33,165 bases of DNA, from assembly GCA_050950285.1 (NCBI GenBank), contig JBMNHG010000007.1, positions 1 through 33,165 on the forward strand. The letters are read 5' to 3'. How positions within the stretch are numbered: position 1 is the stretch's first letter; each line of letters begins with the position of its first letter. Below the pieces are notes generated by a model, which was given only the letters and a program-made list of their open reading frames with translations, was not told the DNA's origin and did no database searches. Positions 1-11,318 of this stretch are shown in pieces. The translations under genes were made by a program, and so were the position numbers. Source of the DNA: Kiritimatiellia bacterium. GTDB lineage: Bacteria; Verrucomicrobiota; Kiritimatiellia; RFP12; JBMNHG01.

Positions 1-2
1 TG

Positions 3-287
3 CTAGTGCTGAAGATCAAGCATGTCGGCCCCCACGCGCCAACCGCCGTTCAAACCATCGGGGCAGCGGCGGAAGGGAATGAGACCGCCGAGGGATCGAG
101 CTTTGTTGTGGGCACCGGCGGCAATGGGCTGGACTTCTGGGTCCTCTCGCGAATCGGATACTTCCATGACGGCGGCAGGAAGCTCTACATGTACGTGCGG
201 AAGCTGACCGTGGATGAAACCGGCCATGTCCGGGGGATCAGCGGCGAAACGAGGGTCGAAGTGGAAACACCTGTGGTTGAGGGTTGA
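3..287 (+). CDS. Hypothetical protein, C-terminal part (5' truncated by window), possibly phage virion protein
   Basis: Frame open from the window start; stop 3 bp before the next ATG (operon-like packing); beta-rich composition. Confidence 0.6.
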   Translation, partial: LVLKIKHVGPHAPTAVQTIGAAAEGNETAEGSSFVVGTGGNGLDFWVLSRIGYFHDGGRKLYMYVRKLTVDETGHVRGISGETRVEVETPVVEG

Positions 288-290
288 GCG

Positions 291-941
291 ATGGCTTACG
301 GAAACCTTGTCAGAGACGGCGCAACCGGGCACCTGAATTACGACAGTGCCACGGGCCATCTGGTTTTTCGGAACTGGGTGGACATCGCGTCTGCCGGGCA
401 ATGGAGGAAGTACGGGTACAACAGTCTCAACGATCCGTCGGCCTATCCCTCCATGATGAGCGTGTACCCCGGCGCGTGGGCTGCTTTGCAGGCCGACGCA
501 TGGGACGGCAGCAGCTACGGGTATCTTTACACGCAGTCGGACTGGGGACAGTCTCATCCGACCGGCGGCAACTATTACACGTCCGTCTGGCTCTATGCGG
601 GCTGCATGCGGTTCAACACGGCGGCCTACAAGGGCAAGACGCTGTACAAGATTCGGGTGTCGTGCGCCTACTACCGCAAGAACACGGTGTGCGATTACCG
701 GCTGACCTATCAGACCGATGCGGGGACCGTTCCGGACGACTCGTGGGCATGGACTACCGCCAGCCCATTCGTGAATGTGCCGGGGACAGGCTACTCGATT
801 CTGACGCTGGGCACGCCGCTGGTGCTCGACGACACGCTCTGGCTGACATCGTGGATTTCCGACTACACGCCGCCCACCAGCGCCTTGCAGGACAACTTCT
901 TCAGGATCGATTCACCGGTAAGGATGTACTTCCAGGATTGA
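291..941 (+). CDS. Hypothetical aromatic/beta-rich protein, possibly phage tail-associated
   Basis: 216 aa, ATG start, tightly packed between neighbours, Y/W/S/T-rich, N-terminal DGATGHL/DSATGHL duplication. Confidence 0.65.
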   Translation: MAYGNLVRDGATGHLNYDSATGHLVFRNWVDIASAGQWRKYGYNSLNDPSAYPSMMSVYPGAWAALQADAWDGSSYGYLYTQSDWGQSHPTGGNYYTSVWLYAGCMRFNTAAYKGKTLYKIRVSCAYYRKNTVCDYRLTYQTDAGTVPDDSWAWTTASPFVNVPGTGYSILTLGTPLVLDDTLWLTSWISDYTPPTSALQDNFFRIDSPVRMYFQD

Positions 942-945
942 GGAT

Positions 946-1890
946 ATGAAAGCGACGATCTGCATTCCGACATGGACTACGGGCCATCACATGCTGATGG
1001 ATTGCGTGAAGAACGTGCGCGAGACTACCGCGTCCGAGCCTGTCGTCTGGCGAACGGACGCGAACGTCGCAGTGGCCAGGAGCGAGGCCACGGCGGCGGC
1101 GGACACTGACTACATCTGCTTCCTGGACACGGATGCGTTCCCGCAGGAAAACGGCTGGCTGGACCGGCTGGTACAGACCGCCGAAGAGTCCGGGGCCGAC
1201 ATCGTGTCGCCGAACGAGGTTCTGTGGTTCTCGCCGTCGAAGACGAAGGCGCTGTGGCCCGAGAGCGCCGCACCCTACGTCGTGGGCGGTCCGCCGACGG
1301 TCGCGGGAATGTGCGTGCTGGTGAGGCGCGGCAAGGGCGTCTGGGACACCCACATGGGGCTGACGCATGGCAGACTTGGCCCGTGCATCGAGGATACGGA
1401 CTTCGCCTACAGCGTAGCGGCGCAAGGCGGCCTGCACGTGAAGGAGCCCCGTGTCCACGTCATCCACAAGGACCGGGGAGCGCCCGACTTCGAGACGTGG
1501 CGGCTGACGCACGAGTACCTCTGCTATGAGATCATGTCGAAGCTGCTCGTCTACAAATGGGAAGTGCTTCCGCCCGAGGAGAGGGCGGGCTTCTTTTCCG
1601 GCCTTGGAAGCGTTCCGGGCAAGAGCCAGCGGTATCTGGCCGACGGATACGGCATCAAGGACCTGATCGAATGCTACGCGCCGGTTGCGGAGAAGATTCC
1701 GGACAAGGCGAACGAGGCACTATGGGGGATCGAGAGCCTGGCGGAACACCATTTGCGGACCCTCAGGCGCGAGGAGAAGCAGAGATGGAAGGGCCGCGAC
1801 GATGTGCCGGAAGCCCTCACCAGGAACATCCAGGGCGATTGGGGCGGTCCGGGGTCAGTCCGAACGCCACGGGTACGAGCGCGTCAGTGA
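946..1890 (+). CDS. GT-A fold (family 2-like) glycosyltransferase
   Basis: N-terminal TICIPT strand, A-R-x-x-A...YICFLDTD (DxD), later IEDTDF motif; GAGGA RBS upstream. Confidence 0.75.
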   Translation: MKATICIPTWTTGHHMLMDCVKNVRETTASEPVVWRTDANVAVARSEATAAADTDYICFLDTDAFPQENGWLDRLVQTAEESGADIVSPNEVLWFSPSKTKALWPESAAPYVVGGPPTVAGMCVLVRRGKGVWDTHMGLTHGRLGPCIEDTDFAYSVAAQGGLHVKEPRVHVIHKDRGAPDFETWRLTHEYLCYEIMSKLLVYKWEVLPPEERAGFFSGLGSVPGKSQRYLADGYGIKDLIECYAPVAEKIPDKANEALWGIESLAEHHLRTLRREEKQRWKGRDDVPEALTRNIQGDWGGPGSVRTPRVRARQ

Positions 1891-1942
1891 ACGGCAGAAA
1901 AGCCGACTTCAAAAGGCATGCGGAAACTGCTACATTGCTCGC

Positions 1943-3207
1943 ATGAGTCGCTTTGCCGTTACCAGCCCTGATCAAATAGTGTCCATACTTCGGACGTTTG
2001 CGGCCTTCGATGGTATTCGTTGGGCCAACGCGCCGAATTACAACCTGATCAACTACTGCTCCGAAGACCTGTCCGACGACGAGAAGATTCTGACGCATTG
2101 GCTCAGTTACATCGCCGACAGGCAAATGCCATTCATGCGCGTATGGGAGGTCGGCGGTTATGTCCTCTCCCAATCTCGTGCGGGAGTTCGAGAGATCGGG
2201 CAGGCCGATGAAGGCGCTTGCCGACGAGCACATACAGCGTCGCCCGGGGGGAGGACGGCAAAGACAAGATCGTGTTCCAGTCTCCAAAGGACGGACCCAA
2301 CAGACGCCTTGAGCTTCAAGGCATAACACGAGGGCCAGTTCGATTTGCCTCCCGATACATCCCAGAAGACGCCTTGCTCATGTTCCGCACGCTCACCTTG
2401 CTTGAGAAAGTCGCGGACAGACGTTTCGCTGGGTTTGCGGCGCTGTTCATCTCGGACTCGGCAGGAATCGGTGAAAACATGCGCCGCCTTGCCATTGCGC
2501 TCGACGGGCTCACCTATTCGGCCGCTGGAGCCATAACGGCTGGCCAACTGGCCGACAGGCTGAGAGATCTGCCAGGTTCGTTGGCGCAAGACGTGTCAGC
2601 GATCCGCAGGGACCCCTCGGCGTGGCTGGAGGCGAGGCGGAAGGTATTCCGTCCCTTCGGCAAGAAGCGTCTCTGGTGCTCGTTGAGAGACTACCTAAAG
2701 AGCCCGGAATTCAATCCCTGCTTCGTGCAAGCTCTTGCTGATGCGGGTTTGAGAAATGCCCATCGATGGAAGTCGACGGACCAGGAATTGCGCCGCTCGC
2801 TCGATCAGTTAGAGTTGCCCGGCGATGTTTGGAACAACAACGAGGTCTTTGCGAACGGCCTGTTCTTGCCTTACTTGCAGAACAAGCCAAAGACGTGGGA
2901 TATGCCCCGGACTGTCCGGGAGATATACAAGGCGATTAATGGCCGAGTGCGGGGGGTGTTTTACCCTGAGCAACTCGACGTGACCTTTGACTTCGTGCCA
3001 CGAATGTGCGAGCGGCAGATGTGCCATGTCTGCCCGTTCGGCGGGGGCGTGTCCAGTCTCTGTCACCAGCAGCGGAACCTGCTCTGTCCTGTTCCGCTGG
3101 TTTCCTGCGGATACCAGCACAGGTGCCGTCCTGAGCAATGCGGATTCAAATCCGATGCCACGAGTGGCGTCTGTCGGCATTGGCAGGCTATCACCACTGA
3201 ACAGTAA
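1943..3207 (+). pseudogene. Frameshifted Cys-rich protein with HhH-GPD/EndoIII-like features
   Basis: N-terminal part starts ATG 1943 (MSRFAVT...WEVGGYVLS) and continues in another frame (ORF 2218-3207). KKRLWCSLRDYLK, LELPGDVWN and CERQMCHVCPF motifs. Frame break between 2169 and 2251. Confidence 0.6.
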
Positions 3208-3216
3208 CGTGGCCAC

Positions 3217-3651
3217 TCATGCATCTTCGGCAACCCGTCCGGCCTGCTGATCGAAGGCCAACCCCTTCCACAACCTCCGCTGCTTACGCCACTCGAGCTC
3301 GGCGGCGATGGGGCGGATGTGTGTCTCGCGGATCGGGTCGCGGCCCTTGACGGTGCGCGGCAGGAAGAGGAGCGCCTCCTGAATCTCCGGCGCGAGTTGC
3401 AGCAGGTTCATGACCTGAGTGACGCGGGCGCGGCTCACGTTGCCCAGCCGCGCCAGGTCGGCCTGATCCGTGATCTCGCCTTCCTTGATCAGCCGGTCGA
3501 AGCGGATCGCCAGAGCCATCAGGCGCGAGATGCGCGGGATTCGGCCCTCGGGCACGGGCGACGGCTCCGGCGGCGGGCTGTCCTGCATGACCTTGCGGGT
3601 GTGCAGCCCCCGCGTGAAGTAGACCTCCTTCTTGATGCTTATCGGTCGCAT
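3217..3651 (-). CDS. Conserved HTH-like protein accompanying DUF2924/serine recombinase modules
   Basis: PRISRLMALAIRFDRLI...DLARLGNVSRARVTQVMNLLQLAPEIQE motif; overlaps the recombinase stop. Confidence 0.8.
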   Translation of the reverse strand: MRPISIKKEVYFTRGLHTRKVMQDSPPPEPSPVPEGRIPRISRLMALAIRFDRLIKEGEITDQADLARLGNVSRARVTQVMNLLQLAPEIQEALLFLPRTVKGRDPIRETHIRPIAAELEWRKQRRLWKGLAFDQQAGRVAEDA

Positions 3652-5213
3652 GTCGTTGCCTCCTGTCGTTTGAGTTCATCGGCCAGCGTCTTGATGCCGG
3701 TCGGGTGGAAGGTGATCTCGACGGTGCCGTTGGGCCCGTCATAGTCCACGCGCTCGATCAGCAGGTGCAGGATGCGGGCCTGCTCACGTGCGCTCAAGGT
3801 CTCCCAGAGCGGGTCAAACAACGCGCACGCCTCGCCAACCTCGCGGGCGTCCACCAGCTCGCGGGAGAGGGCGAGAATCTGCTCGCGGACCTCCGTGGCG
3901 CGTTGCTCGGCGGTGCGGATGCGCTCCTGGACGTCGGCCAGGCGGTCGGTCGCTTGGCCGTTCTTGCCGATCAACTTGCGCAGGTCGGCGTTGTGGCGGC
4001 CCAGTTCGCGCTCTAGCGTGCGCTTCTCGACCTCCAGCTTGCCGATGGCCTCCTCGCGCTGGCGGCGGCATTCGGCCAGCGTCTCGTTGAGCAGGTTCGT
4101 GTCCCGCCCGATGCTCTTGACCTGGTCGACCACGAACCTCTCCATTTCGGGCGCGGGCACCGACGGCGTGGGGCAGGCCTGCCAGCCGCGTTTCTGGGCG
4201 TTCGTGCAGCAGTAGTACCGGTAGACCTTGCCGCCGTTGTCGGACAGGCGTTTGACGGTGTGCGATGGAGCCATCGCGCAGTCGCAGGTGACGCAGCGCA
4301 CCAGGCCCTTGAGGAGCGCCCCGTGGCGGTTACGGACGTGGGCCCCGCCGGTGCGGCCGTTGCGCTTGAGCAGGTGCTGGGCGCGGTCGAAGATCTCGGC
4401 GTCCACGATGGCCGGGTGCTCGCCATCGTAAATCTCGTCCTTGTAGGTGATCTTGCCGAGGTAAACGCGGTTCGTCAGCAGTCGGAACAGGCTGTTCTTG
4501 TCGAACGGCCTGCCGCCCATCTCGCGGCCGCGCGTCGAAGTCCAGTGCTTCGTTCTCCATCCTCGTTCTTCCAGGAGCGCCGACGTGGTCAGGAGCGACT
4601 GGCGGTCCAGGTATAGCTCGAAGATGTCACGCACGCGGGCTGCCTCGTCATCGTTGACCCGCAGGCGGCCGCCGTTCTCGACCACATCGTAGCCCAGCAT
4701 GGGGTAGCCGCCGGTCCACTTGCCCTTGCGGCGCGTGGCGGCGATCTTGTCGCGGGTGCGCTCGGAGATCATCTCGCGCTCGAACTGGGCGAACGACAGC
4801 AGCACGTTGAGCATCAGGCGACCCATCGAGGTGCTGGTGTTGAACTGCTGGGTGACCGAGACGAACGCGACCTTGTGCCGTTCGAGCACGTCCATGATCT
4901 TGGAGAAGTCGATCAACGAGCGGCTCAGGCGGTCGACCTTGTAGACCACGATGGAGTCCACCTGGCCCGCCTCGATGTCGGCCATCAGGCGCTGGAGCGC
5001 CGGGCGATCCATGTTGCCGCCGGTGAACCCGCCGTCGTCGTAGCGGTCGGGCAGGCAGACCCAGCCCTCCGAGACCTGGCTGGCGATGAACAGTTCGCCC
5101 GCCTGCCGCTGGGCGTCCAGGCTGTTGAACTCCTGCTCCAGGCCGTCCTCGGTGCTCTTGCGGGTGTAGACCGCGCATCGGACGGTCGGCGGCTTCTCGG
5201 TCGCCTTACTCAT
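3639..5213 (-). CDS. Large serine recombinase (resolvase + recombinase + Zn-ribbon + coiled coil)
   Basis: Catalytic YTRKST, VYKVDRLSRS, AQFEREMISERTRDK, recombinase-domain YLGK, Zn ribbon CVTC...YYCC...C; 524 aa. Confidence 0.95.
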   Translation of the reverse strand: MSKATEKPPTVRCAVYTRKSTEDGLEQEFNSLDAQRQAGELFIASQVSEGWVCLPDRYDDGGFTGGNMDRPALQRLMADIEAGQVDSIVVYKVDRLSRSLIDFSKIMDVLERHKVAFVSVTQQFNTSTSMGRLMLNVLLSFAQFEREMISERTRDKIAATRRKGKWTGGYPMLGYDVVENGGRLRVNDDEAARVRDIFELYLDRQSLLTTSALLEERGWRTKHWTSTRGREMGGRPFDKNSLFRLLTNRVYLGKITYKDEIYDGEHPAIVDAEIFDRAQHLLKRNGRTGGAHVRNRHGALLKGLVRCVTCDCAMAPSHTVKRLSDNGGKVYRYYCCTNAQKRGWQACPTPSVPAPEMERFVVDQVKSIGRDTNLLNETLAECRRQREEAIGKLEVEKRTLERELGRHNADLRKLIGKNGQATDRLADVQERIRTAEQRATEVREQILALSRELVDAREVGEACALFDPLWETLSAREQARILHLLIERVDYDGPNGTVEITFHPTGIKTLADELKRQEATTCDR

Positions 5214-5706
5214 CGTCGCCTCCGTTTCGTTTCAGGTTGAAGAAGTGGTAGCCGTTCCAGTGGGTGCCCGTGATGGCCTTGGCGACCGCCGAGAGCGTGC
5301 GGTAGACCTCGCCCTCGTGCTCGAAGCCCTTGGGCAGGACACGCACGACGATCTCGCGGCCCTTGTAGAGGCGCTTGATGTTCGATCCGGCCATCGGCAG
5401 GCGCGAGTCGCTGTCGAAGGCCACCGAGGTCTGCCGGGTGAGCGCGGGCCGGTCCTCGGTCTTTCGGACCTTCGGCGCGGTGGTGCGCAGGTCGGCGTCG
5501 TTGGCCAGTTCGTCGGCCCGACGCCTCGCTTGCTCGGACAGGTCGCCGTGGGCGTTGGCCTGCAACCGCCAGGCGATGCGTTTGACCAGGTAGTCCCGGT
5601 TGCCGGTGCGCGTCGGCTCCCCGAAGGCATCGACGTGTTTGGATCGCAGTTCCGAGACCGTCATGCGGCCCAGGGCGGCGACCTCTCTGGCGACGTTCTG
5701 CGTCAT
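5206..5706 (-). CDS. DUF2924 domain-containing protein
   Basis: YLVKRIAWRLQ and FEHEGEVYRTLSAVAKAITGTHWNGYHFF signature; 8-bp overlap with the recombinase start. Confidence 0.9.
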   Translation of the reverse strand: MTQNVAREVAALGRMTVSELRSKHVDAFGEPTRTGNRDYLVKRIAWRLQANAHGDLSEQARRRADELANDADLRTTAPKVRKTEDRPALTRQTSVAFDSDSRLPMAGSNIKRLYKGREIVVRVLPKGFEHEGEVYRTLSAVAKAITGTHWNGYHFFNLKRNGGDDE

Positions 5707-6017
5707 GGTTTGCGTGCTCCTTTCATGTGTTCGTTCGCTGTTTCTCGTGCCTGCCGAGAGGCTGGCGACGTGAACACATGAAGGCTCGTTCTCGCCCCCT
5801 CATCAAGGGCTTCCCGACCTCTTTTCGAAGTATTTTCGGGCGTGCGGGAGGGACTCGAACCTGGCGCGTTCTCGGCGCTCCGGCGCAGGCGCAGGACGCC
5901 TCTGGCGAGGATGGCCGCGACCTCGCGGCGGCGCTGGTCGGGGGTCATGGCTGCGGGGTCGCGGGTCGCGTCGTGGGCGATGGACGCCGGTCGTTCTGTC
6001 GGTGCGGATGCTGGCAT
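5703..6017 (-). CDS. Small hypothetical protein upstream of DUF2924
   Basis: GAAAGGAG RBS; MTPDQRRREVAAILARGVLRL motif typical of this module; ATGA overlap with DUF2924. Confidence 0.65.
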   Translation of the reverse strand: MPASAPTERPASIAHDATRDPAAMTPDQRRREVAAILARGVLRLRRSAENAPGSSPSRTPENTSKRGREALDEGARTSLHVFTSPASRQARETANEHMKGARKP

Positions 6018-6153
6018 TGCGGGCTCCTTTCGGGTTGTCCGCCTTCGCCCTGGGGGCTGCGGCGCGACGGGCCCACAACGGCCTTCGCCTGGCGACCGGT
6101 CCGATGTCTGGCGGGTTGATGCTGCTCGTCTACGGATTACATACGCGCCGGAA

Positions 6154-6197
6154 GTTCGAAATGGCGCTGGGGTCCGGTACGAACGAACCTGTTAACC
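6154..6197 (+). repeat. Direct repeat copy 1 (left flank of stress operon)
   Basis: 35/44 identity to 10909-10952, ungapped, including identical 18-mer CGAACGAACCTGTTAACC. Confidence 0.85.
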
Positions 6198-6220
6198 GGC
6201 CCTTGTGGCCCGCGGGATCA

Positions 6221-6249
6221 TTGACACGGCACCGGCGCGATGCTATATT
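6221..6249 (+). promoter_or_regulatory. Sigma70-type promoter of the ArsR-hcp operon
   Basis: TTGACA (6221-6226), 17-bp spacer ending TGc, TATATT (6244-6249). Confidence 0.85.
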
Positions 6250-6262
6250 CAAGCTTTTGAAT
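6247..6262. promoter_or_regulatory. Putative ArsR-family operator
   Basis: ATTCAA-gctt-TTGAAT inverted repeat (ATTC-N8-GAAT) overlapping the -10/TSS. Confidence 0.7.
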
Positions 6263-6282
6263 GTTCCCGCAAAGAGGCTGAC

Positions 6283-6645
6283 ATGACTGATTCACAGAGA
6301 TGGGGCAAATCAGCGAACCTGTTGAGGATGCTCGGACATCCGGTGCGGCTGGCGCTGATTGAGGAACTGTCCAAGGCTCCGAAGTGCGTCACGGACATCC
6401 AGGATTTGCTGGACGTCCGTCAGGCGAATGTCTCACAGCATCTGGCCGTACTGCGCGAGGCGGAGATTGTGGACTTCCATGAGGAAGGCAATCTTCGCTG
6501 CTACTACATCCTGAGGCCCACCTTGGTCCGCGAGTTGGTACGCTTCCTCGGGAAGGATCACCCGTTGAAGCCGAGGAGCGCGGAACAGATACGGCGTGCG
6601 TGCCGGAACACGATGAAGATCCACCAGAAGACCGATCATCGATGA
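6283..6645 (+). CDS. ArsR/SmtB family transcriptional regulator
   Basis: LGHPVRLALIEEL...CVTDI...QANVSQHLAVLREAEIV winged HTH; AGAGG RBS before ATG 6283. Confidence 0.92.
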   Translation: MTDSQRWGKSANLLRMLGHPVRLALIEELSKAPKCVTDIQDLLDVRQANVSQHLAVLREAEIVDFHEEGNLRCYYILRPTLVRELVRFLGKDHPLKPRSAEQIRRACRNTMKIHQKTDHR

Positions 6646-6676
6646 GATGTTGACCGACAAAGAGAGGAACGAAACC

Positions 6677-7030
6677 ATGACCGTGTTGTTGATCTTCAAT
6701 CACGCGCCCTACGATGGGACTGATGTGACCTGGAACGCCCTGCGGTTGGCGGGGCAACTCAAGAAAGACGGGGCCGAGGTGCGGCTCTTTCTCATGAACG
6801 ATTCAGTAGATCTGGCCCGCGACGGCATCCCTGTGCCTGAGGGCGCCTCTGATATGGTCCAGATGACCAAGGACCTGATCGCCGCCGGAGTGTCGGTGAA
6901 GGTCTGCGGCACCTGCCAGGCGCGATGCGGTATTCGCAAGGGTGATCCCTACTACGAAGGTGCCCGGAAAGCCACGATGGCCGAGTTGTCTGAATGGGTG
7001 ATGCATAGCGATCAGGTGCTGACGTTCTGA
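6677..7030 (+). CDS. DsrE/YchN family protein
   Basis: NHAPY, ALRLA, LFLMNDSV, VCGTCQARCG motifs; GAGG RBS. Confidence 0.88.
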   Translation: MTVLLIFNHAPYDGTDVTWNALRLAGQLKKDGAEVRLFLMNDSVDLARDGIPVPEGASDMVQMTKDLIAAGVSVKVCGTCQARCGIRKGDPYYEGARKATMAELSEWVMHSDQVLTF

Positions 7031-7056
7031 CGGGTCTTCATTGGAAGGAGTGAATC

Positions 7057-7551
7057 ATGTCTCAGGAAACCCAGCCGACCGATCCGGCGTCATCAAATCA
7101 GCCGCCGTTGCGCCCAACGGCGTTAATGAACTTCAAGAAGACGGATTCCGAGTTGGCAAAGATTGTCGGAGCCTTCTGGCAACTGATCTGGGCCCGCAAG
7201 TCACCCGCTATCGATCAGAAGACTCGGTATCTGCTCTCGCTGGCAAATGCCGTCGGCGCGGGGCGGTTCAGGCAGGCGACCCGGGAACTCGTCAAGGCTT
7301 ACGCAATCGGCACAACGGTCGAGGAACTGGATGAACTGTTCAGCCTGTTCGTCTGGAACCAGGGTGCCGGAACGTTCGCCTCCGAGATCGGCCCTTCTTC
7401 CCTGTTCGCCGCCTATCAGATGGCGAAGGAGATGGAAGGGAACAAGGCTTCGCGCGATGAGGTCGTAGAGGCTTTGAAGAAACACTTTGGCGAGGAAAAC
7501 CCCGCCGTTGGAACCCGTTATCAACCCGAAGAAAGGAAAGAAACACGATGA
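7057..7551 (+). CDS. Carboxymuconolactone decarboxylase (CMD/AhpD-like) family protein
   Basis: AIDQKTRYLLSLA...KAYAIGTTVEELDE pattern; no CxxC; AAGGAG RBS. Confidence 0.75.
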   Translation: MSQETQPTDPASSNQPPLRPTALMNFKKTDSELAKIVGAFWQLIWARKSPAIDQKTRYLLSLANAVGAGRFRQATRELVKAYAIGTTVEELDELFSLFVWNQGAGTFASEIGPSSLFAAYQMAKEMEGNKASRDEVVEALKKHFGEENPAVGTRYQPEERKETR

Positions 7552-9212
7552 GTATGTTTTGCTACCAGTGTGAACAAACCGCCAGAGGAACCGGCTGCAC
7601 CGCGCATGGCGTATGCGGGAAAGACCCGGAGACCGCCGCGCTTCAAGACCTCGCGATTCACATCGCCGAAGGAGTCAGCCAGTACGCGCATCGGGCTCGG
7701 CCCCTGGGCGTAACCCATCGTCCAGCGGATCTGTTCGTCGTCGAGGCCCTGTTCGCCACGGTGACGAACGTGGACTTCGATCCTCAGCGCTTGGCGGAGC
7801 TGATTCGACGCGGTGCGGCAGTCCGTGCTGAGATCAGGCGGGCTTATGAAGCCGCCTGCCGGAAAGCCGGTCAGCAGCCGCAGCCGTTGGCGCATGATGC
7901 GGCCATCGAGCCCTCCGGCGACCTCAATGAGATGATTCGCCAGGGCGAGCAGGTCACCATCCAAAAGCGCATCGAGGCGCTGGGCGACGACGTGGCGGGC
8001 CTTCAGGAACTGATCACCTATGGCCTGAAAGGCATGGTGGCTTACGTTGACCACGCGATGATCCTCGGCGTCGAGGACGATGCGGTCTATGCGTTCATCC
8101 ACGAGGCGATGGACTTCCTCGCAGGGAACCCGGCGGACGTGGATACCCTCGTCGGCATGGCCATGCGGGTTGGAGAAGTCAATCTCAAGGCCATGGAACT
8201 GCTCGATGCCGCCAACACGGGCACATACGGCCATCCCGAGCCAACCCAGGTCCGGGTCACCCCCGTCAAGGGCAAGTGCATCGTGGTCTCGGGCCACGAC
8301 CTCAAGGACCTGAAGATGCTTCTGGAGCAGACCGAGGGCAAGGGGATCAACGTCTACACGCACGGGGAGATGCTGCCCTGCCTGGCGTACCCGGAGCTGA
8401 AGAAGCACAAGCATCTCGTGGGCAACTATGGCGGGGCCTGGCAGGATCAGCGGCAGGAGTTCGACGCCTTTCCTGGATCGGTTCTGATGACCACCAACTG
8501 CATCCAGAAGCCCAAGGAGAGCTACTTCGGACGCATCTTCACGACCGGCCTGGTCGCCTGGCCGAACGTCACGCACATTGCCCCCGACGCCAAGGGGAAC
8601 AAAGACTTCACCCCCGTAATCGAGGCGGCGCTATCCGCGCCGGGCTTCGCGGAGGACGCCGAACCCAAGACCATCACCATCGGCTTTGCGCGCAATACCG
8701 TGATGAGCGTCGCAGGGCAAGTGATCGACGCGGTCAAGGCGGGCAAGATTCGTCACTTCTTCCTCATCGGCGGTTGCGACGGAGCCAAGCCCGGCCGTAA
8801 CTACTACACCGAGCTGGCGCAACAGGTGCCGCAGGACTGCGTGATCCTGACGCTTGCCTGCGGGAAGTACCGCTTCAACAAGTTGCCGTTCGGCGACATC
8901 GGCGGTATTCCGCGACTGCTGGACTGCGGGCAGTGCAACGACGCCTATTCCGCCATCCAGATCGCCGTGGCGCTGAGCAAGGCGTTCAACTGCGGGGTCA
9001 ACGAACTTCCGCTGAGCCTGGTGCTGAGTTGGTACGAGCAGAAGGCCGTCTGCATCCTGCTGACGCTGCTGCATCTGGGCATCAAAAACATGCGGCTGGG
9101 ACCGACGCTCCCCGCGTTTGTCGGCCCCAACGTCCTCAAGGTGCTGGTGGAGAAGTTCAACCTCATGCCGATCACAACGCCTGAGAAGGATCTCGCGGCC
9201 ATGCTCGGATAA
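7548..9212 (+). CDS. hcp: Hybrid cluster protein (hydroxylamine/NO reductase)
   Basis: MFCYQCEQT...C...GVCGK cubane motif, SGHDL, YTHGEMLP, TTNC, GGCDG, LACGKY, GQCND, SWYEQKA. Confidence 0.97.
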   Translation: MSMFCYQCEQTARGTGCTAHGVCGKDPETAALQDLAIHIAEGVSQYAHRARPLGVTHRPADLFVVEALFATVTNVDFDPQRLAELIRRGAAVRAEIRRAYEAACRKAGQQPQPLAHDAAIEPSGDLNEMIRQGEQVTIQKRIEALGDDVAGLQELITYGLKGMVAYVDHAMILGVEDDAVYAFIHEAMDFLAGNPADVDTLVGMAMRVGEVNLKAMELLDAANTGTYGHPEPTQVRVTPVKGKCIVVSGHDLKDLKMLLEQTEGKGINVYTHGEMLPCLAYPELKKHKHLVGNYGGAWQDQRQEFDAFPGSVLMTTNCIQKPKESYFGRIFTTGLVAWPNVTHIAPDAKGNKDFTPVIEAALSAPGFAEDAEPKTITIGFARNTVMSVAGQVIDAVKAGKIRHFFLIGGCDGAKPGRNYYTELAQQVPQDCVILTLACGKYRFNKLPFGDIGGIPRLLDCGQCNDAYSAIQIAVALSKAFNCGVNELPLSLVLSWYEQKAVCILLTLLHLGIKNMRLGPTLPAFVGPNVLKVLVEKFNLMPITTPEKDLAAMLG

Positions 9213-9219
9213 ACGTTAC

Positions 9220-9245
9220 GCGGGGCCGCCGACGGGCGGCCCCGC
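9220..9245 (+). other. Intergenic hairpin (11-bp perfect stem) after hcp
   Basis: GCGGGGCCGCC-gacg-GGCGGCCCCGC with no U-tract; second hairpin GATGCGC-ggaaa-GCGCATC at 9261-9279. Confidence 0.7.
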
Positions 9246-9305
9246 TCGAATCACGGTGCGGATGCGCGGAAAGCGCATCCTGTCGAAGAAAGGAGTACCT
9301 CACCC

Positions 9306-10493
9306 ATGCATCCTCGAAAGATTCGAGACGGCATTCACGGCATCATGACGGTTCACTGGGAGCGACGGCTGTTCGACTCGTTGATCCCGTTGCCCGATGG
9401 AACCAGTTACAACGCCTACCTCGTGAAGGGGCGTGATGCGACGGCTCTGATTGACAGCGCGGACCCGGCTTTGCAGGGCGAATTCATGGAACATCTCCGC
9501 GACGTGGCTGGCATCGACTACGTCGTGTCTCAGCATGCGGAGCAGGACCATTCGGGTGTGATCCCGCTGTTGCTGGAGCGGTTTCCCGCCGCCAAGCTGG
9601 TCTGCAGCGGAAAGGCCCAGGATCTGCTGGCAACGCATCTGGGAGTTGCCGCCGACCGAATGATTGCCGTGGAGGACAGTCAGACCATATCCCTTGGCGG
9701 CAAGACGCTGCAGTTCGTCCACACGCCTTGGGTCCATTGGCCGGAGACCATGTGTACATACGTTCCCGAGGACAAGTGCCTGTTCTCCTGCGATTTCTTT
9801 GGCTCGCACCTGGCCACGACCGACCTTTACGTGACTGACGAAGCCCGCGTGTACGAGGCGGCCAAGCGGTACTACGCCGAGATCATGATGCCGTTCAGGA
9901 ACGTGATCGCCAAGAACCTCGACAAGATTGGCAGGTTGGACTTCGACACCATCGCGCCCAGCCACGGGCCCGTCTACGACAAGCCCTCCTTCATTTTGAA
10001 CGCCTACCGGGAATGGGTATCGCCCGGAATGAAGAATGAAGTAGTCCTGCCTTATATCAGCATGCACGGAAGCACTGCGGCAATGGTGAAGCATCTCATC
10101 GATGCACTGGCTCGACACGGCGTCACCGTTGCGGCATTCGATCTGGCCGTGACGGACATTGGCAAACTCGCCATCGCGCTGGTGGATGCTGCGACTCTGG
10201 TCGTCGGAACCCCGACCGTCCATGTCGGTCCACATCCGGCGGTGTTCTATGCCTCGCATCTGGCAAATCTGCTGCGTCCCAAGCTCAAGTACGCCTCCAT
10301 CGTCGGCTCCTACGGGTGGAGCAGCAAGGCCATCGAACAGATCGCCGCACTGATTCCGAACCTCAAGGTCGAAGTCCTGGAACCGGTACTGTGCAAGGGC
10401 CACCCTGCGCCGGAGACTTACGGGAAGCTCGACGCGCTGGCCGCTGCTGTGGCCAAGGCGCATGAGAAGGACGAACTGGTCAAACAGGACTGA
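9306..10493 (+). CDS. fprA: Flavodiiron protein (FprA family A-type flavoprotein)
   Basis: GTSYNAYL, HAEQDH, VHWPE, SCDFFG, PSHG diiron ligands; SMHGST flavodoxin loop; GSYGW. Confidence 0.93.
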   Translation: MHPRKIRDGIHGIMTVHWERRLFDSLIPLPDGTSYNAYLVKGRDATALIDSADPALQGEFMEHLRDVAGIDYVVSQHAEQDHSGVIPLLLERFPAAKLVCSGKAQDLLATHLGVAADRMIAVEDSQTISLGGKTLQFVHTPWVHWPETMCTYVPEDKCLFSCDFFGSHLATTDLYVTDEARVYEAAKRYYAEIMMPFRNVIAKNLDKIGRLDFDTIAPSHGPVYDKPSFILNAYREWVSPGMKNEVVLPYISMHGSTAAMVKHLIDALARHGVTVAAFDLAVTDIGKLAIALVDAATLVVGTPTVHVGPHPAVFYASHLANLLRPKLKYASIVGSYGWSSKAIEQIAALIPNLKVEVLEPVLCKGHPAPETYGKLDALAAAVAKAHEKDELVKQD

Positions 10494-10552
10494 AGCTGCC
10501 TCGGAATGTCCACGGCACCCCGGAAGCATCAACACGAGAGAGAGACATCACG

Positions 10553-10891
10553 ATGAAGATCATCAACGCCAAGGAAGCCCCTGGCGGGCCGAACCCTCAC
10601 AACGTCAAAGCCGCCCAGGTCTATGACAATGAGCACGCGATGGTTGTCCACCTGACGCTCGGACCGGGACAGTCGCTCAAGCGCCACATCACGCCGGTGG
10701 ACGTGTTCTTTTATGTCCTGGAAGGCACCGGGGTTGTCGAGGTGGGTGACGAAAAGCAGACGGTCGGTCCCGATTCGCTGATCGACAGCCCGGCCCGCGT
10801 CCCGCACTGCTGGTACAACGAGAGCGACAAGCCACTGCGGGTCCTTGTGGTGAAGGTGCCACGCCCCACCACGCAGACCCGGCTCCTGTGA
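10553..10891 (+). CDS. Cupin domain protein
   Basis: HITPVDVFFYVLEGTG...PARVPHCWYN cupin motifs. Confidence 0.9.
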   Translation: MKIINAKEAPGGPNPHNVKAAQVYDNEHAMVVHLTLGPGQSLKRHITPVDVFFYVLEGTGVVEVGDEKQTVGPDSLIDSPARVPHCWYNESDKPLRVLVVKVPRPTTQTRLL

Positions 10892-10908
10892 TTTCCCGCT
10901 TGGAGACG

Positions 10909-10952
10909 GTTCGAAACCGGTCATGGTCCCGGTCCGAACGAACCTGTTAACC
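10909..10952 (+). repeat. Direct repeat copy 2 (right flank of stress operon)
   Basis: 35/44 identity to 6154-6197; followed by degenerate partial copy AACGAGCTGTTCACC (10956-10970). Confidence 0.85.
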
Positions 10953-11002
10953 ACAAACGAGCTGTTCACCAGAGAGTCAGAGAGTTTGGGGGGTTGTTCT
11001 CG

Positions 11003-11041
11003 GGGTCCGGTCGTGAACGTATACGTTCAGGACCGGGACCC
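11003..11041. repeat. Imperfect ~39-bp palindrome, candidate recombinase site
   Basis: Perfect core TGAACGTATACGTTCA (11014-11029) with CCGGTC/GACCGG arms. Confidence 0.75.
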
Positions 11042-11110
11042 GGTTTCTCCGTTTCGGAAGAGAGAACGCGCCCAAGGCGGCGGGAGCGCCGGAACCCTTT
11101 GGAATCAACG

Positions 11111-11148
11111 CAAAACGAAGACGCCCGGCCAGATGCCTGGTCGGGCGT
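11111..11148 (-). terminator. Putative intrinsic terminator downstream of tRNA-Asn
   Basis: 12-bp near-perfect stem ACGCCCGACCAG/CTGGCCGGGCGT followed by CTTCGTTTTG on the minus strand. Confidence 0.6.
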
Positions 11149-11190
11149 TCGTGTTAACAGGATGGTACGGGAATCTTCCGAGAAGAAAGT

Positions 11191-11265
11191 TGGCTCCGGT
11201 GGCTGGATTCGAACCAGCGACCAAAGGATTAACAGTCCTCTGCGCTACCGCTGCGCTACACCGGA
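11191..11265 (-). tRNA. tRNA-Asn (GTT)
   Basis: TCCGGTGTAGCGCAGCGGTAGCGCAGAGGACTGTTAATCCTTTGGTCGCTGGTTCGAATCCAGCCACCGGAGCCA cloverleaf with encoded CCA. Confidence 0.97.
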
Positions 11266-11288
11266 GTGATGCGAAAAATGTGGAAGGG

Positions 11289-11318
11289 AACTTACCACCT
11301 TCCCAGGTCGGCTGTCAA
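11289..11318 (-). promoter_or_regulatory. Sigma70-type promoter of tRNA-Asn
   Basis: TTGACA-18 bp (ending TGG)-TAAGTT on the minus strand, 23 bp upstream of the tRNA. Confidence 0.65.

Follow-up and report, generated by a model that had tools for sequence, protein, structure and literature searches.

The stretch of DNA considered here (hereafter the window) comprises 33,165 nucleotides of a Kiritimatiellia bacterium (contig JBMNHG010000007.1, assembly GCA_050950285.1) and contains a six-gene operon of about 4.7 kb that lies between two imperfect direct repeats, next to the gene of a large serine recombinase. We consider it probable that this operon is a mobile cassette that entered a dedicated docking site by recombination, and that the adjacent CcrB-like recombinase was the enzyme responsible. 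Among related loci, the insertion of DNA at this site is precise, and alleles are found that are empty, filled with different cargo or loaded with several cassettes. Moreover, the cassettes carry distinct half-sites of their own, and identical cassettes occur in backbones that have diverged.

The repeats and the interval between them

The two copies of the repeat (6154-6197 and 10909-10952, 4755 nt from start to start) are 44 nt long, and a repeat search found 35 of the 44 positions to be identical (80%), including an uninterrupted 18-mer, CGAACGAACCTGTTAACC, at 6180-6197 and 10935-10952. When up to two mismatches are allowed, the window contains two matches to this 18-mer, versus 0.00 expected from 100 shuffles, and the genome (4,045,209 bases in 12 contigs) contains two forward and no reverse matches. 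A hidden Markov model (HMM) of the site also found only two copies in the whole genome, located on C7 at 6149-6199 (E 4.4e-15) and 10907-10954 (E 1.1e-8). Given that there are only two genomic copies, the repeat is not a dispersed element of the repetitive extragenic palindromic (REP) type. The first copy corresponds to an attL-like left junction (6149-6199, forward strand), composed of the left half of the element, GTTCGAAATGGCG..., and the right half of the cassette, while the second corresponds to an attR-like right junction (10907-10954, forward strand), composed of the left half of the cassette, GTTCGAAACCGGTCAT..., and the native right half of the element.

The first copy ends 23 bp before a TTGACA at 6221, and the second begins 17 bp past the stop codon of the last open reading frame (ORF; 10553-10891), the bracketed interval of about 4.7 kb being made up of one promoter and six genes. 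The promoter, which resembles those read by sigma-70, is TTGACA-17-TATATT (6221-6249, forward strand), with 11 of 12 consensus matches; a promoter scan returned one site versus 1.2 expected by shuffling, and it is hence a consensus match only. An earlier interpretation, made from the letters of the window alone (the sequence-only reading), had already described the 44-bp repeats with their common 18-mer, the spacings of 23 and 17 bp, the interval composed of a promoter and six genes, and a module of recombinase and DUF2924 genes transcribed away from the first copy. The repeat search, the positions and strands of the ORFs, and the Pfam and NCBIfam assignments bear out all of these, with the promoter recognised by consensus only, and the widespread genomic REP that the same reading had regarded as its possible undoing is not what the 18-mer or the site HMM, with two copies each, reveals.

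Empty and filled alleles in related loci

Relatives were retrieved through an exact 26-nt block (6072-6097) in the leader of the recombinase operon, which yielded 96 metagenome and 6 IMG/VR stretches. When the window itself and the genome loci are counted in, the total is 110 leader-bearing loci. For two of them (L003 and L004), blastn shows that the parts corresponding to 3264-6197 and 10905-11268 of the window abut and overlap on one single copy of the repeat, which makes them precise empty alleles. Sorted by the distance between the leader and a motif in the right flank, 52 loci are empty (141-200 nt), 21 are filled and include both junctions (660-4899 nt), and 37, mostly short contigs, lack the flank. 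Sorting by junction instead gave empty sites in 52 of the 110 loci (32 distinct sequences), left junctions followed by foreign DNA in 51 (43 distinct), and 23 candidate right junctions (20 distinct sequences, or 19 after the removal of one that was mis-anchored). Both of the alternatives for which the sequence-only reading had suggested searching, namely empty alleles and other cargo between the repeats, are therefore present among the relatives.

Among the filled loci, 44 contain 60 nt or more of cargo, and this cargo forms 34 clusters. Nineteen of 26 cargo proteins matched a Pfam family and seven matched none. The families found include a GmrSD restriction enzyme, TetR, an ArsP permease, PadR (twice), CNNM/CorC transporters (twice), a methyltransferase, a ParA-like ATPase, LinB-like nucleotidyltransferases (twice), TerB, DUF5661, DUF5677, PEP-CTERM/DUF1559 and an alpha/beta hydrolase.

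Half-sites and the point of exchange

In what follows, B and B' are the left and right halves of an empty site, and P and P' are the halves found at the 3' end and the 5' start of a cassette. The half-site beside the recombinase leader consistently reads GTTCGAAATGGCG..., whereas the copy at the far end of the cassettes reads GTTCGAAATCGC(T/C)C.... Column 10 of the arm is G in all 32 empty sites and all 38 left junctions but C in 16 of 19 right junctions, and column 13 is G in 31 of the 32 empty sites, in all 38 left junctions and in only 3 of the 19 right junctions. This consistent difference between B and P rules out a simple target-site duplication. The cassettes also begin with a right half of their own, whose common form, TGCGGGAGGAACCGGCTGTTAAC, is present in at least six cargo types and in exact form in none of the 32 distinct empty sites, although a similar one is found in the group of L115. 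Three loci classed as empty (L115, L136 and L171) carry 31 extra nt between the leader and GTTCGAAA, with a right half that resembles a cassette-type P', and they may be remnants of a lost cassette.

Pairs of nearly isogenic loci locate the exchange more closely. Over 600 nt of backbone, the empty locus L119 and the filled locus L111 share 99.17% identity. From GGGTCCGAG onward, the right junction of L111 is the same as the empty site of L119, and the left junction of L111 diverges from that site right after GGCGGT-G-GGGT. Likewise, L132 and L140 have backbones that are 100% identical (593 nt) and part 4 nt after GGGGT, with different cargo and different P'. These pairs confine the crossover to a centre of 5-6 bp (GG-G/T-T/C-CC), which has central GG..CC and is flanked by inverted GTTCG and CGAAC with an outer distance of 31 bp. 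Attachment sites of large serine recombinases are expected to have this size and shape, that is, about 45-50 bp with inverted arms around a short centre, and by its sequence the site looks like one of them.

Judging from these alignments, the crossover most likely takes place at the centre of the 45-50-bp site (around 6170-6176 and 10925-10931 in the window) and not in the 18-mer. The 18-mer identity of the two window copies arises because the P' of this cassette is nearly the same as B', and the exchange could have occurred there anywhere between the centre and CTGTTAACC. The proposal that the repeat is a recombination site is supported, while the place of exchange has most likely to be moved from the 18-mer to the centre, even though the window by itself fits both. 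The near-isogenic pairs rule out a crossover inside the 18-mer, or its CTGTTAAC core, for L111 and for L132 and L140; in the window and in the pair L104 and L144 it can still have happened there.

Three other ideas about the site were set aside. A dyad symmetry centred on GTTAAC did not extend, in a comparison by hand, past the hexamer itself. An origin of the repeat from a tRNA does not agree with ARAGORN and Rfam, which give only the genuine tRNA-Asn and tRNA-Phe, or with the order of the GTTCGAA-like and CTGTTAA-like motifs, which is unfit for a tRNA. Finally, B' covaries only partially with the acceptor stem of the host tRNA-Asn, with L004, L114 and L120 as exceptions, and since this pattern is confounded with descent, we do not use it as evidence.

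Arrays and independent movement of cassettes

Several loci contain more than one cassette. For instance, L009 has two, with a hybrid P.P' site between them, and L087, L089, L144, L109 and L100 have at least three sites or stacked units. Comparison of the sequences of cassettes and backbones indicates that cassettes move independently of backbones. A nucleotidyltransferase cassette is 99.9% identical in L104 and L144 (800 nt), whereas their backbones are 91.7% identical (1210 nt), with the last mismatch of the backbone type directly to the left of the GGG centre. Similarly, the window and the empty locus L085 are 91.2% identical on the recombinase side and 97.3% identical in the right half of the site and in R240, the flank that follows it.

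Public sequencing runs were available as assembled contigs only (Logan), in 24 runs. One contig joint, from 6132 to 11121, with sides of 29 nt and 90% likeness and nothing known about what lies between, was found in two of them (X2, depth 11; X4, depth 647). It was considered as an excision product and was read instead as a related element.

The recombinase module

The recombinase (3639-5213, reverse strand, 524 aa) is intact and has all three Pfam domains of large serine recombinases: Resolvase (PF00239, E 5.9e-39, residues 14-166), Recombinase (PF07508, E 2.6e-15, residues 189-285) and Zn_ribbon_recom (PF13408, E 6.4e-12, residues 300-366). Its YTRKS aligns with YTRVS in the catalytic domain of the TP901-1 integrase (E 8.5e-25), and we take the serine of this motif to be the nucleophile. 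Residues 172-369 match the A118 integrase (E 1.4e-13), and residues 376-465 resemble the coiled-coil family Lebercilin below its threshold (23.9 bits, cutoff 34.3). Among the NCBIfam families, CcrB scores best, at 191.7 bits versus a cutoff of 900, followed by CcrC (113, cutoff 900) and CcrA (109.1, cutoff 700).

Three further genes, all on the reverse strand, accompany the recombinase. The operon begins with an ORF of 104 aa (5703-6017), which has an RBS-like (ribosome-binding site) GGAG upstream and for which no match was found in Pfam, PHROG or NCBIfam. It continues with a DUF2924 protein of 166 aa (5206-5706; Pfam PF11149, E 5.8e-41; PHROG 11806) that overlaps the start of the recombinase and that we presume to be a DNA-binding accessory protein. 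It closes with a ParB-HTH-like (helix-turn-helix) protein of 144 aa (3217-3651; Pfam HTH_ParB at E 6.6e-4, below the cutoff; PHROG 14161, "recombinase", E 4.9e-16). The recombinase, the DUF2924 gene and the 104-aa ORF are all read away from the first repeat copy, and the conserved leader and promoter region of the operon (6018-6148, reverse strand), with the 26-nt block, lies between them and the site. The block conserved among relatives begins around 3240-3268, just past the stop codon of the ParB-like gene, with left limits of 3234-3268 in blastn. The literature that we found on DUF2924 concerns Wolbachia only: in the passages available, DUF2924 is said to overlap the RAMA DNA-binding domain (PMC11342252), and in the Wolbachia phage WO a DUF2924 gene is described as followed by a recombinase gene (PMC10299305).

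More than 565 relatives of the recombinase are present in the genome collection. The best of them are 83-89% identical and come from metagenome-assembled genomes (MAGs) labelled Nitrospira, Acidobacteria, Anaerohalosphaeraceae, Planctomycetales and Tepidisphaeraceae, labels that can be wrong; a homologue that is 63% identical (L013) belongs to a MAG with the label Candidatus Nealsonbacteria. Across the family, recombinase genes tend to lie near tRNA genes. A tRNA-Asn gene is located upstream, on the same strand and 1.14-9.75 kb from the recombinase start, in 16 of 60 homologue loci. A tRNA-Arg gene on the opposite strand is located from a few hundred bases to about 1.5 kb past the recombinase stop in another arrangement, seen in 8 of the 60 (L026, L028, L033, L040, L042, L046, L055 and L064), which may represent a subclade directed at tRNA-Arg, with the recombinase gene at the attachment end.

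The carrier element and its end at tRNA-Asn

A tRNA-Asn (GTT) gene lies 238 bp beyond the second repeat copy (11191-11265, reverse strand; found by ARAGORN and, with 73.2 bits, by the Rfam tRNA model), and the homology with relatives ends at this gene (blastn limits 11265-11268). The bodies of the tRNAs vary between loci, whereas the 240 bp before them (R240; 10955-11190, forward strand), which also adjoin the site in relatives, are conserved along with the recombinase module, which places the limit of the element at the tRNA-Asn 3' end. R240 contains a second CTGTTCAC motif, AGAGAGTCAGAGAGTT, a palindrome (11001-11042) and a hairpin (11121-11146) that, from its sequence, looks like the terminator of the tRNA on the reverse strand. 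Near-perfect over 42 nt, the palindrome has arms (GGGTCCGGTCGTGAACG) similar in sequence to the site's centre and right half. L003 and L004 conserve it, and L016 has a looser form; it could be a terminator of cassette transcripts or a second protein-binding site.

What comes after the end of R240 is tRNA-Asn in 25 distinct junctions and otherwise a further unit whose start is a P'-like half (TCCCC..GCAACCC). In L144, for example, the order is recombinase, cassette 1, R240, 7 nt of tRNA end, cassette 2, site, R240 and tRNA, and partial tRNA ends between units are also found in L126 (about 28 nt). B' itself resembles a shortened 3' end of tRNA-Asn, a likeness in sequence that suggests that the internal site copies the chromosomal target of the enzyme.

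Phage genes lie beside the module in other loci, including tape-measure genes in L004 (E 7.6e-45) and L016 (E 9e-47) and a baseplate gene in L016, and six IMG/VR contigs carry the recombinase leader. These neighbours and contigs identify the carrier as an element that resembles a tailed phage. To the left of the module, the window has only unnamed ORFs, followed by the contig end. Positions 9-284 encode the C-terminus of a protein known from the IMG/VR stretch L179 (851 aa), and this part is repeated on C2 (954103-954375, about 93% protein identity), which is probably the cause of the assembly break at the window start and hints at a second related element in the genome. L179 matches the window over 10-1857 (87%) and resumes at about 3194; the extra 1.3 kb of the window (1858-3193), a second insertion or deletion in the element, holds an ORF of 329 aa (2218-3207) with no match in Pfam or PHROG.

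Only two genomes represent the family of this bacterium in the collection, and the other one lacks the motif. In a sample of the phylum, the site with R240 has matches in 10 of 401 genomes at E<=0.001, strong in only five besides the window's own. In one of these genomes, G161, a unit of this kind (L200:4100-4500) stops within a terminase ORF at GGCTC, a sequence similar to the tRNA-Asn 3' end, and the place is apparently a secondary site of insertion. The window's own genome has a homologous gene for a gpA-type terminase (C3:23002-24687) and a partial second copy (C3:36883-37383). We discarded the terminase as the natural left end of the element, given that the junction lies inside an ORF that is intact in the window's own genome.

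The cargo operon of the window

The cargo of the window is an operon for nitrosative and oxidative stress, with all genes on the forward strand. It encodes, in order, an ArsR/SmtB regulator (6283-6645, starting at the ATG at 6283 rather than at 6205 or 6284), a DsrE-like protein (6647-7030), a protein of 164 aa with no assigned function (7057-7551), a hybrid-cluster protein or hydroxylamine reductase (7548-9212; NCBIfam, 829.9 bits, cutoff 367), a flavodiiron protein (9306-10493) and a cupin (10553-10891), with Pfam and NCBIfam supporting the regulator, the DsrE-like protein, the flavodiiron protein and the cupin. At 57-63%, the cassette has a lower G+C content than the recombinase module (65-70%) and the DNA beyond 12 kb (67-73%). 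A 10-mer of the site, CGAACCTGTT, reappears in early codons of the ArsR gene (6314-6323), which may be chance.

Contigs of a wastewater run (X10) cover 6168-7912 and 8181-8365 with 0-2 differences and 8907-9058 with 9, at a depth of about 140-165, and give almost no coverage of 9229-11138. One of these contigs has another left flank before 6153, which resembles a flank in contig C46 of G161. From such contigs, it appears that the front part of the window cassette may also exist in another context.

Proposed mechanism and alternatives

We propose that a docking site of about 45-50 bp, situated some 140 bp upstream of the orf104-DUF2924-recombinase-ParB-like operon and divergent from it, would receive the cassettes, and that both would ride inside a phage-like element at the 3' end of tRNA-Asn. 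The empty site would be B.B', with B reading GAGTTCGAAATGGCGGT(A/G)GG and B' reading (G)TCCG..CGAACGG..CTGTTAAC, while a cassette circle would be P.P', with P (GAGTTCGAAATCGC(T/C)C..GG) at the 3' end of the cassette and P' at its 5' start. A conservative, site-specific exchange at the centre would then generate attL as B.P' (6149-6199) and attR as P.B' (10907-10954). The adjacent CcrB-like recombinase would be the catalyst, probably aided by DUF2924 and/or the small ORFs, and the internal site would be a copy of its chromosomal target. The occurrence of the site both empty and with different cargo, as expected for the recombinase-driven cassette capture of the sequence-only reading, is seen directly among the relatives; that this recombinase is the driver we infer from linkage, site architecture and analogy, and the circular intermediate, the exact crossover dinucleotide and the continued activity of the reaction are likewise presumptive. 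Somewhat more tentatively, and with a little less than even confidence, we suggest that the whole is a phage-borne platform for gene capture by a serine recombinase, in which an internal copy of the tRNA end, next to the recombinase promoter, acts as a standing docking site and promoter-bearing cassettes with attP-like sites of their own are taken up, stacked, exchanged between phages and carried across phyla. Such a platform would functionally be an integron built on a serine recombinase.

Several observations weigh against this mechanism. At a number of loci, the left and right junctions do not have the same central hexamer (GGGTCC and GGTCCC in the window, GGGTGC and GGCCCC in L140), which is unexpected for a single event of a serine recombinase with a 2-bp overlap and would need later mutation, several events or another mechanism. 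The dyad symmetry beyond GTTCG/CGAAC and GG/CC is weak. In addition, P is very similar to B, and in some cassettes, including that of the window, P' is very similar to B'; such likeness between partner sites is closer to what is seen in staphylococcal cassette chromosome (SCC) elements than to classical attP and attB, and it leaves room for recombination through short homology. Between L104 and L144, identity extends on the right to a boundary past CTGTTAAC, a position more in keeping with a crossover in the region of the 18-mer. Since every locus was retrieved by way of the recombinase or its leader, the linkage between site and recombinase is partly built in. Among seven distant loci, in which the recombinase is 57-66% identical, no clear repeat pair was found except for one of 127 nt in L030, and G161, a 94%-complete assembly, has two units of site and R240 and no recombinase of this family. 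Finally, no circle or excision product was found in the assembled Logan contigs of runs X2, X10, X14 and X4, which break at both repeat copies; this result is uninformative either way.

The most serious competitor, which we nevertheless regard as unlikely, is that the recombinase element, the cassettes and the 240-bp terminal segment were separately inserted at the end of tRNA-Asn by serine recombinases, so that the site would be a scar between two stacked units, later reshuffled through recombination from scar to scar, with no dedicated docking. Some of the traits already described would suit such a stack: R240 ends at either tRNA-Asn or a next unit with a P'-like start, B' looks like a shortened tRNA-Asn 3' end, and cassette 2 of L144 follows R240 and 7 nt of tRNA end. 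Moreover, the start of that cassette is homologous to the L135 cargo, which is located at a B.P' junction, and part of the recombinase leader persists in units of L089 and L087, as would be expected of decayed elements. However, stacking that always took place at the tRNA would put cassettes between R240 and the tRNA, whereas R240 adjoins the tRNA in 25 of 25 distinct tRNA junctions and at least 34 cargo types are found between the leader and R240 instead; the near-isogenic pair L119 and L111, furthermore, differs by a clean insertion at the internal site.

Still less probable, in our view, is the exchange of cassettes between related phage-like elements through homologous recombination in the flanks (leader and R240), with the site copies being functional DNA, such as an operator for the recombinase promoter or an insulator or terminator, carried by the cargo blocks. 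In temperate phages, the region between the integrase gene and the attachment site is a classic location of accessory genes; GTTCGAAA, to judge by its sequence, may also serve the recombinase promoter as its -35 box; and the mosaic identities (91.2% versus 97.3% between the window and L085; 91.7% versus 99.9% between L104 and L144) are what such exchange would produce. Yet it leaves unexplained the P half-sites at cargo ends (in 16-17 of 19 right junctions versus none of 70 other sites), the P' starts, the P.P' hybrid between the cassettes of L009 and the insertion of 34 cargo types at an identical point within a few bp. We give slightly less credence again to the action of another recombinase on the site, be it from the host or from elsewhere in the element (for instance, a tyrosine integrase), with the serine enzyme only integrating the element at tRNA-Asn. 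That the centres of left and right junctions do not always share a dinucleotide would agree with this, the left end of the element lies outside the window, and tRNA 3' ends are described as the usual targets of tyrosine integrases (PMC4383910). On the other hand, Pfam and PHROG revealed no second recombinase in positions 1-11300 of the window or in about 10 kb beside the module in L004, L016 and L179, and no tyrosine recombinase domain among the ORFs scanned; the layout of tRNA-Asn, variable gap and recombinase operon is kept in 16 of 60 homologue loci; and the site consists of inverted GTTCG/CGAAC around a short centre, without the overlap of 6-8 bp and the inverted cores of 9-13 bp.

Comparison with known systems

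We found no description of this cassette system among the titles and abstracts given by a literature search whose coverage excluded subscription journals. Of the published systems, SCC elements and the ssrA islands of Dehalococcoides come nearest to it in kind. In SCC and its composite arrays, which CcrAB or CcrC mobilise, the cargo is flanked by imperfect direct repeats of the attachment site, and units without a recombinase lie in tandem beside an autonomous one. The present loci share with SCC a large serine recombinase, for which CcrB is the best NCBIfam family, the direct repeats of an attachment site around cargo, the tandem units without a recombinase (L009, L087, L089 and L144) and partner sites that resemble each other more than attP and attB do. 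They differ from SCC in that the Ccr scores are far below the cutoffs, a single recombinase and DUF2924 take the place of the CcrA/CcrB pair, and the anchor is tRNA-Asn instead of the 3' end of rlmH/orfX. In addition, the docking site is inside a phage-like element beside the recombinase promoter, and the cassettes are small (0.5-5 kb), have their own promoters and reside in hosts labelled Planctomycetota, Acidobacteria, Nitrospira and others.

The layout is also that of an integron, with a recombinase gene, a divergent docking site and an array of unrelated cassettes that each end in their own site, and with empty, single and multi-cassette alleles; the sequence-only reading had made this comparison from the window, and the ORFs, junctions and arrays corroborate it. 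In contrast to integrons, the enzyme is a serine recombinase and not the tyrosine recombinase IntI, the sites look like double-stranded, quasi-symmetric sites of about 45 bp and not like attC hairpins folded from single strands, and the platform rides on a phage-like element. Integron cassettes are mostly promoterless, whereas that of the window starts with its consensus promoter and holds a six-gene operon; motifs resembling -35 and -10 boxes can be read by eye at the starts of other cassettes. With the serine integrases of phages (TP901-1, A118/LI, Bxb1 and phiC31), the recombinase shares its domain architecture, its sequence matches to TP901-1 and A118, a gene position beside the attachment region and, probably, a site of 40-50 bp with a short central crossover. 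Those enzymes, however, join one phage genome to one host site, while here a second, internal site takes extra DNA and the partner halves are alike.

The ssrA islands, as described in the passages available of McMurdie et al. (2011, PMC3146451), have an integration module beside the attachment site with a CcrB-like serine recombinase of about 540 aa and a ParB-domain protein. Repeats of the small RNA gene's 3' end delimit islands that lie in tandem, 15 islands have no integration module and their mobilisation is attributed to neighbours, and the phylogenies of integration module and cargo are discordant. Here, too, the element or stack stops at a small-RNA gene (tRNA-Asn, 25 distinct junctions) and has incomplete copies of that gene's 3' end at its boundaries. 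According to the same passages, the islands target the T-loop of ssrA as units of about 12 kb at the RNA gene itself, whereas here the presumed target is tRNA-Asn and an internal docking site is proposed; the passages describe neither an internal docking site by the recombinase promoter nor distinct cassette half-sites, and they mention a second, small serine recombinase, DsiA, that is absent here (PMC3146451).

Biological meaning

DNA of this organism is found in samples from bioreactors, wastewater, digesters and landfills, with at least half of the sampled words present in 20 runs from 16 studies, and the system rides on phage-like elements in MAGs labelled as several phyla. If the recombinase runs the site, this would be a natural, modular system for gene capture outside the textbook integrons and SCC. 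It would provide dozens of natural, matched pairs of serine-recombinase sites, useful for working out site compatibility, and a ready-made landing-pad design like those that engineers build. It would also explain how accessory operons, such as those for stress, restriction, transporters, regulators and nucleotidyltransferases, could spread as small units between distant bacteria.

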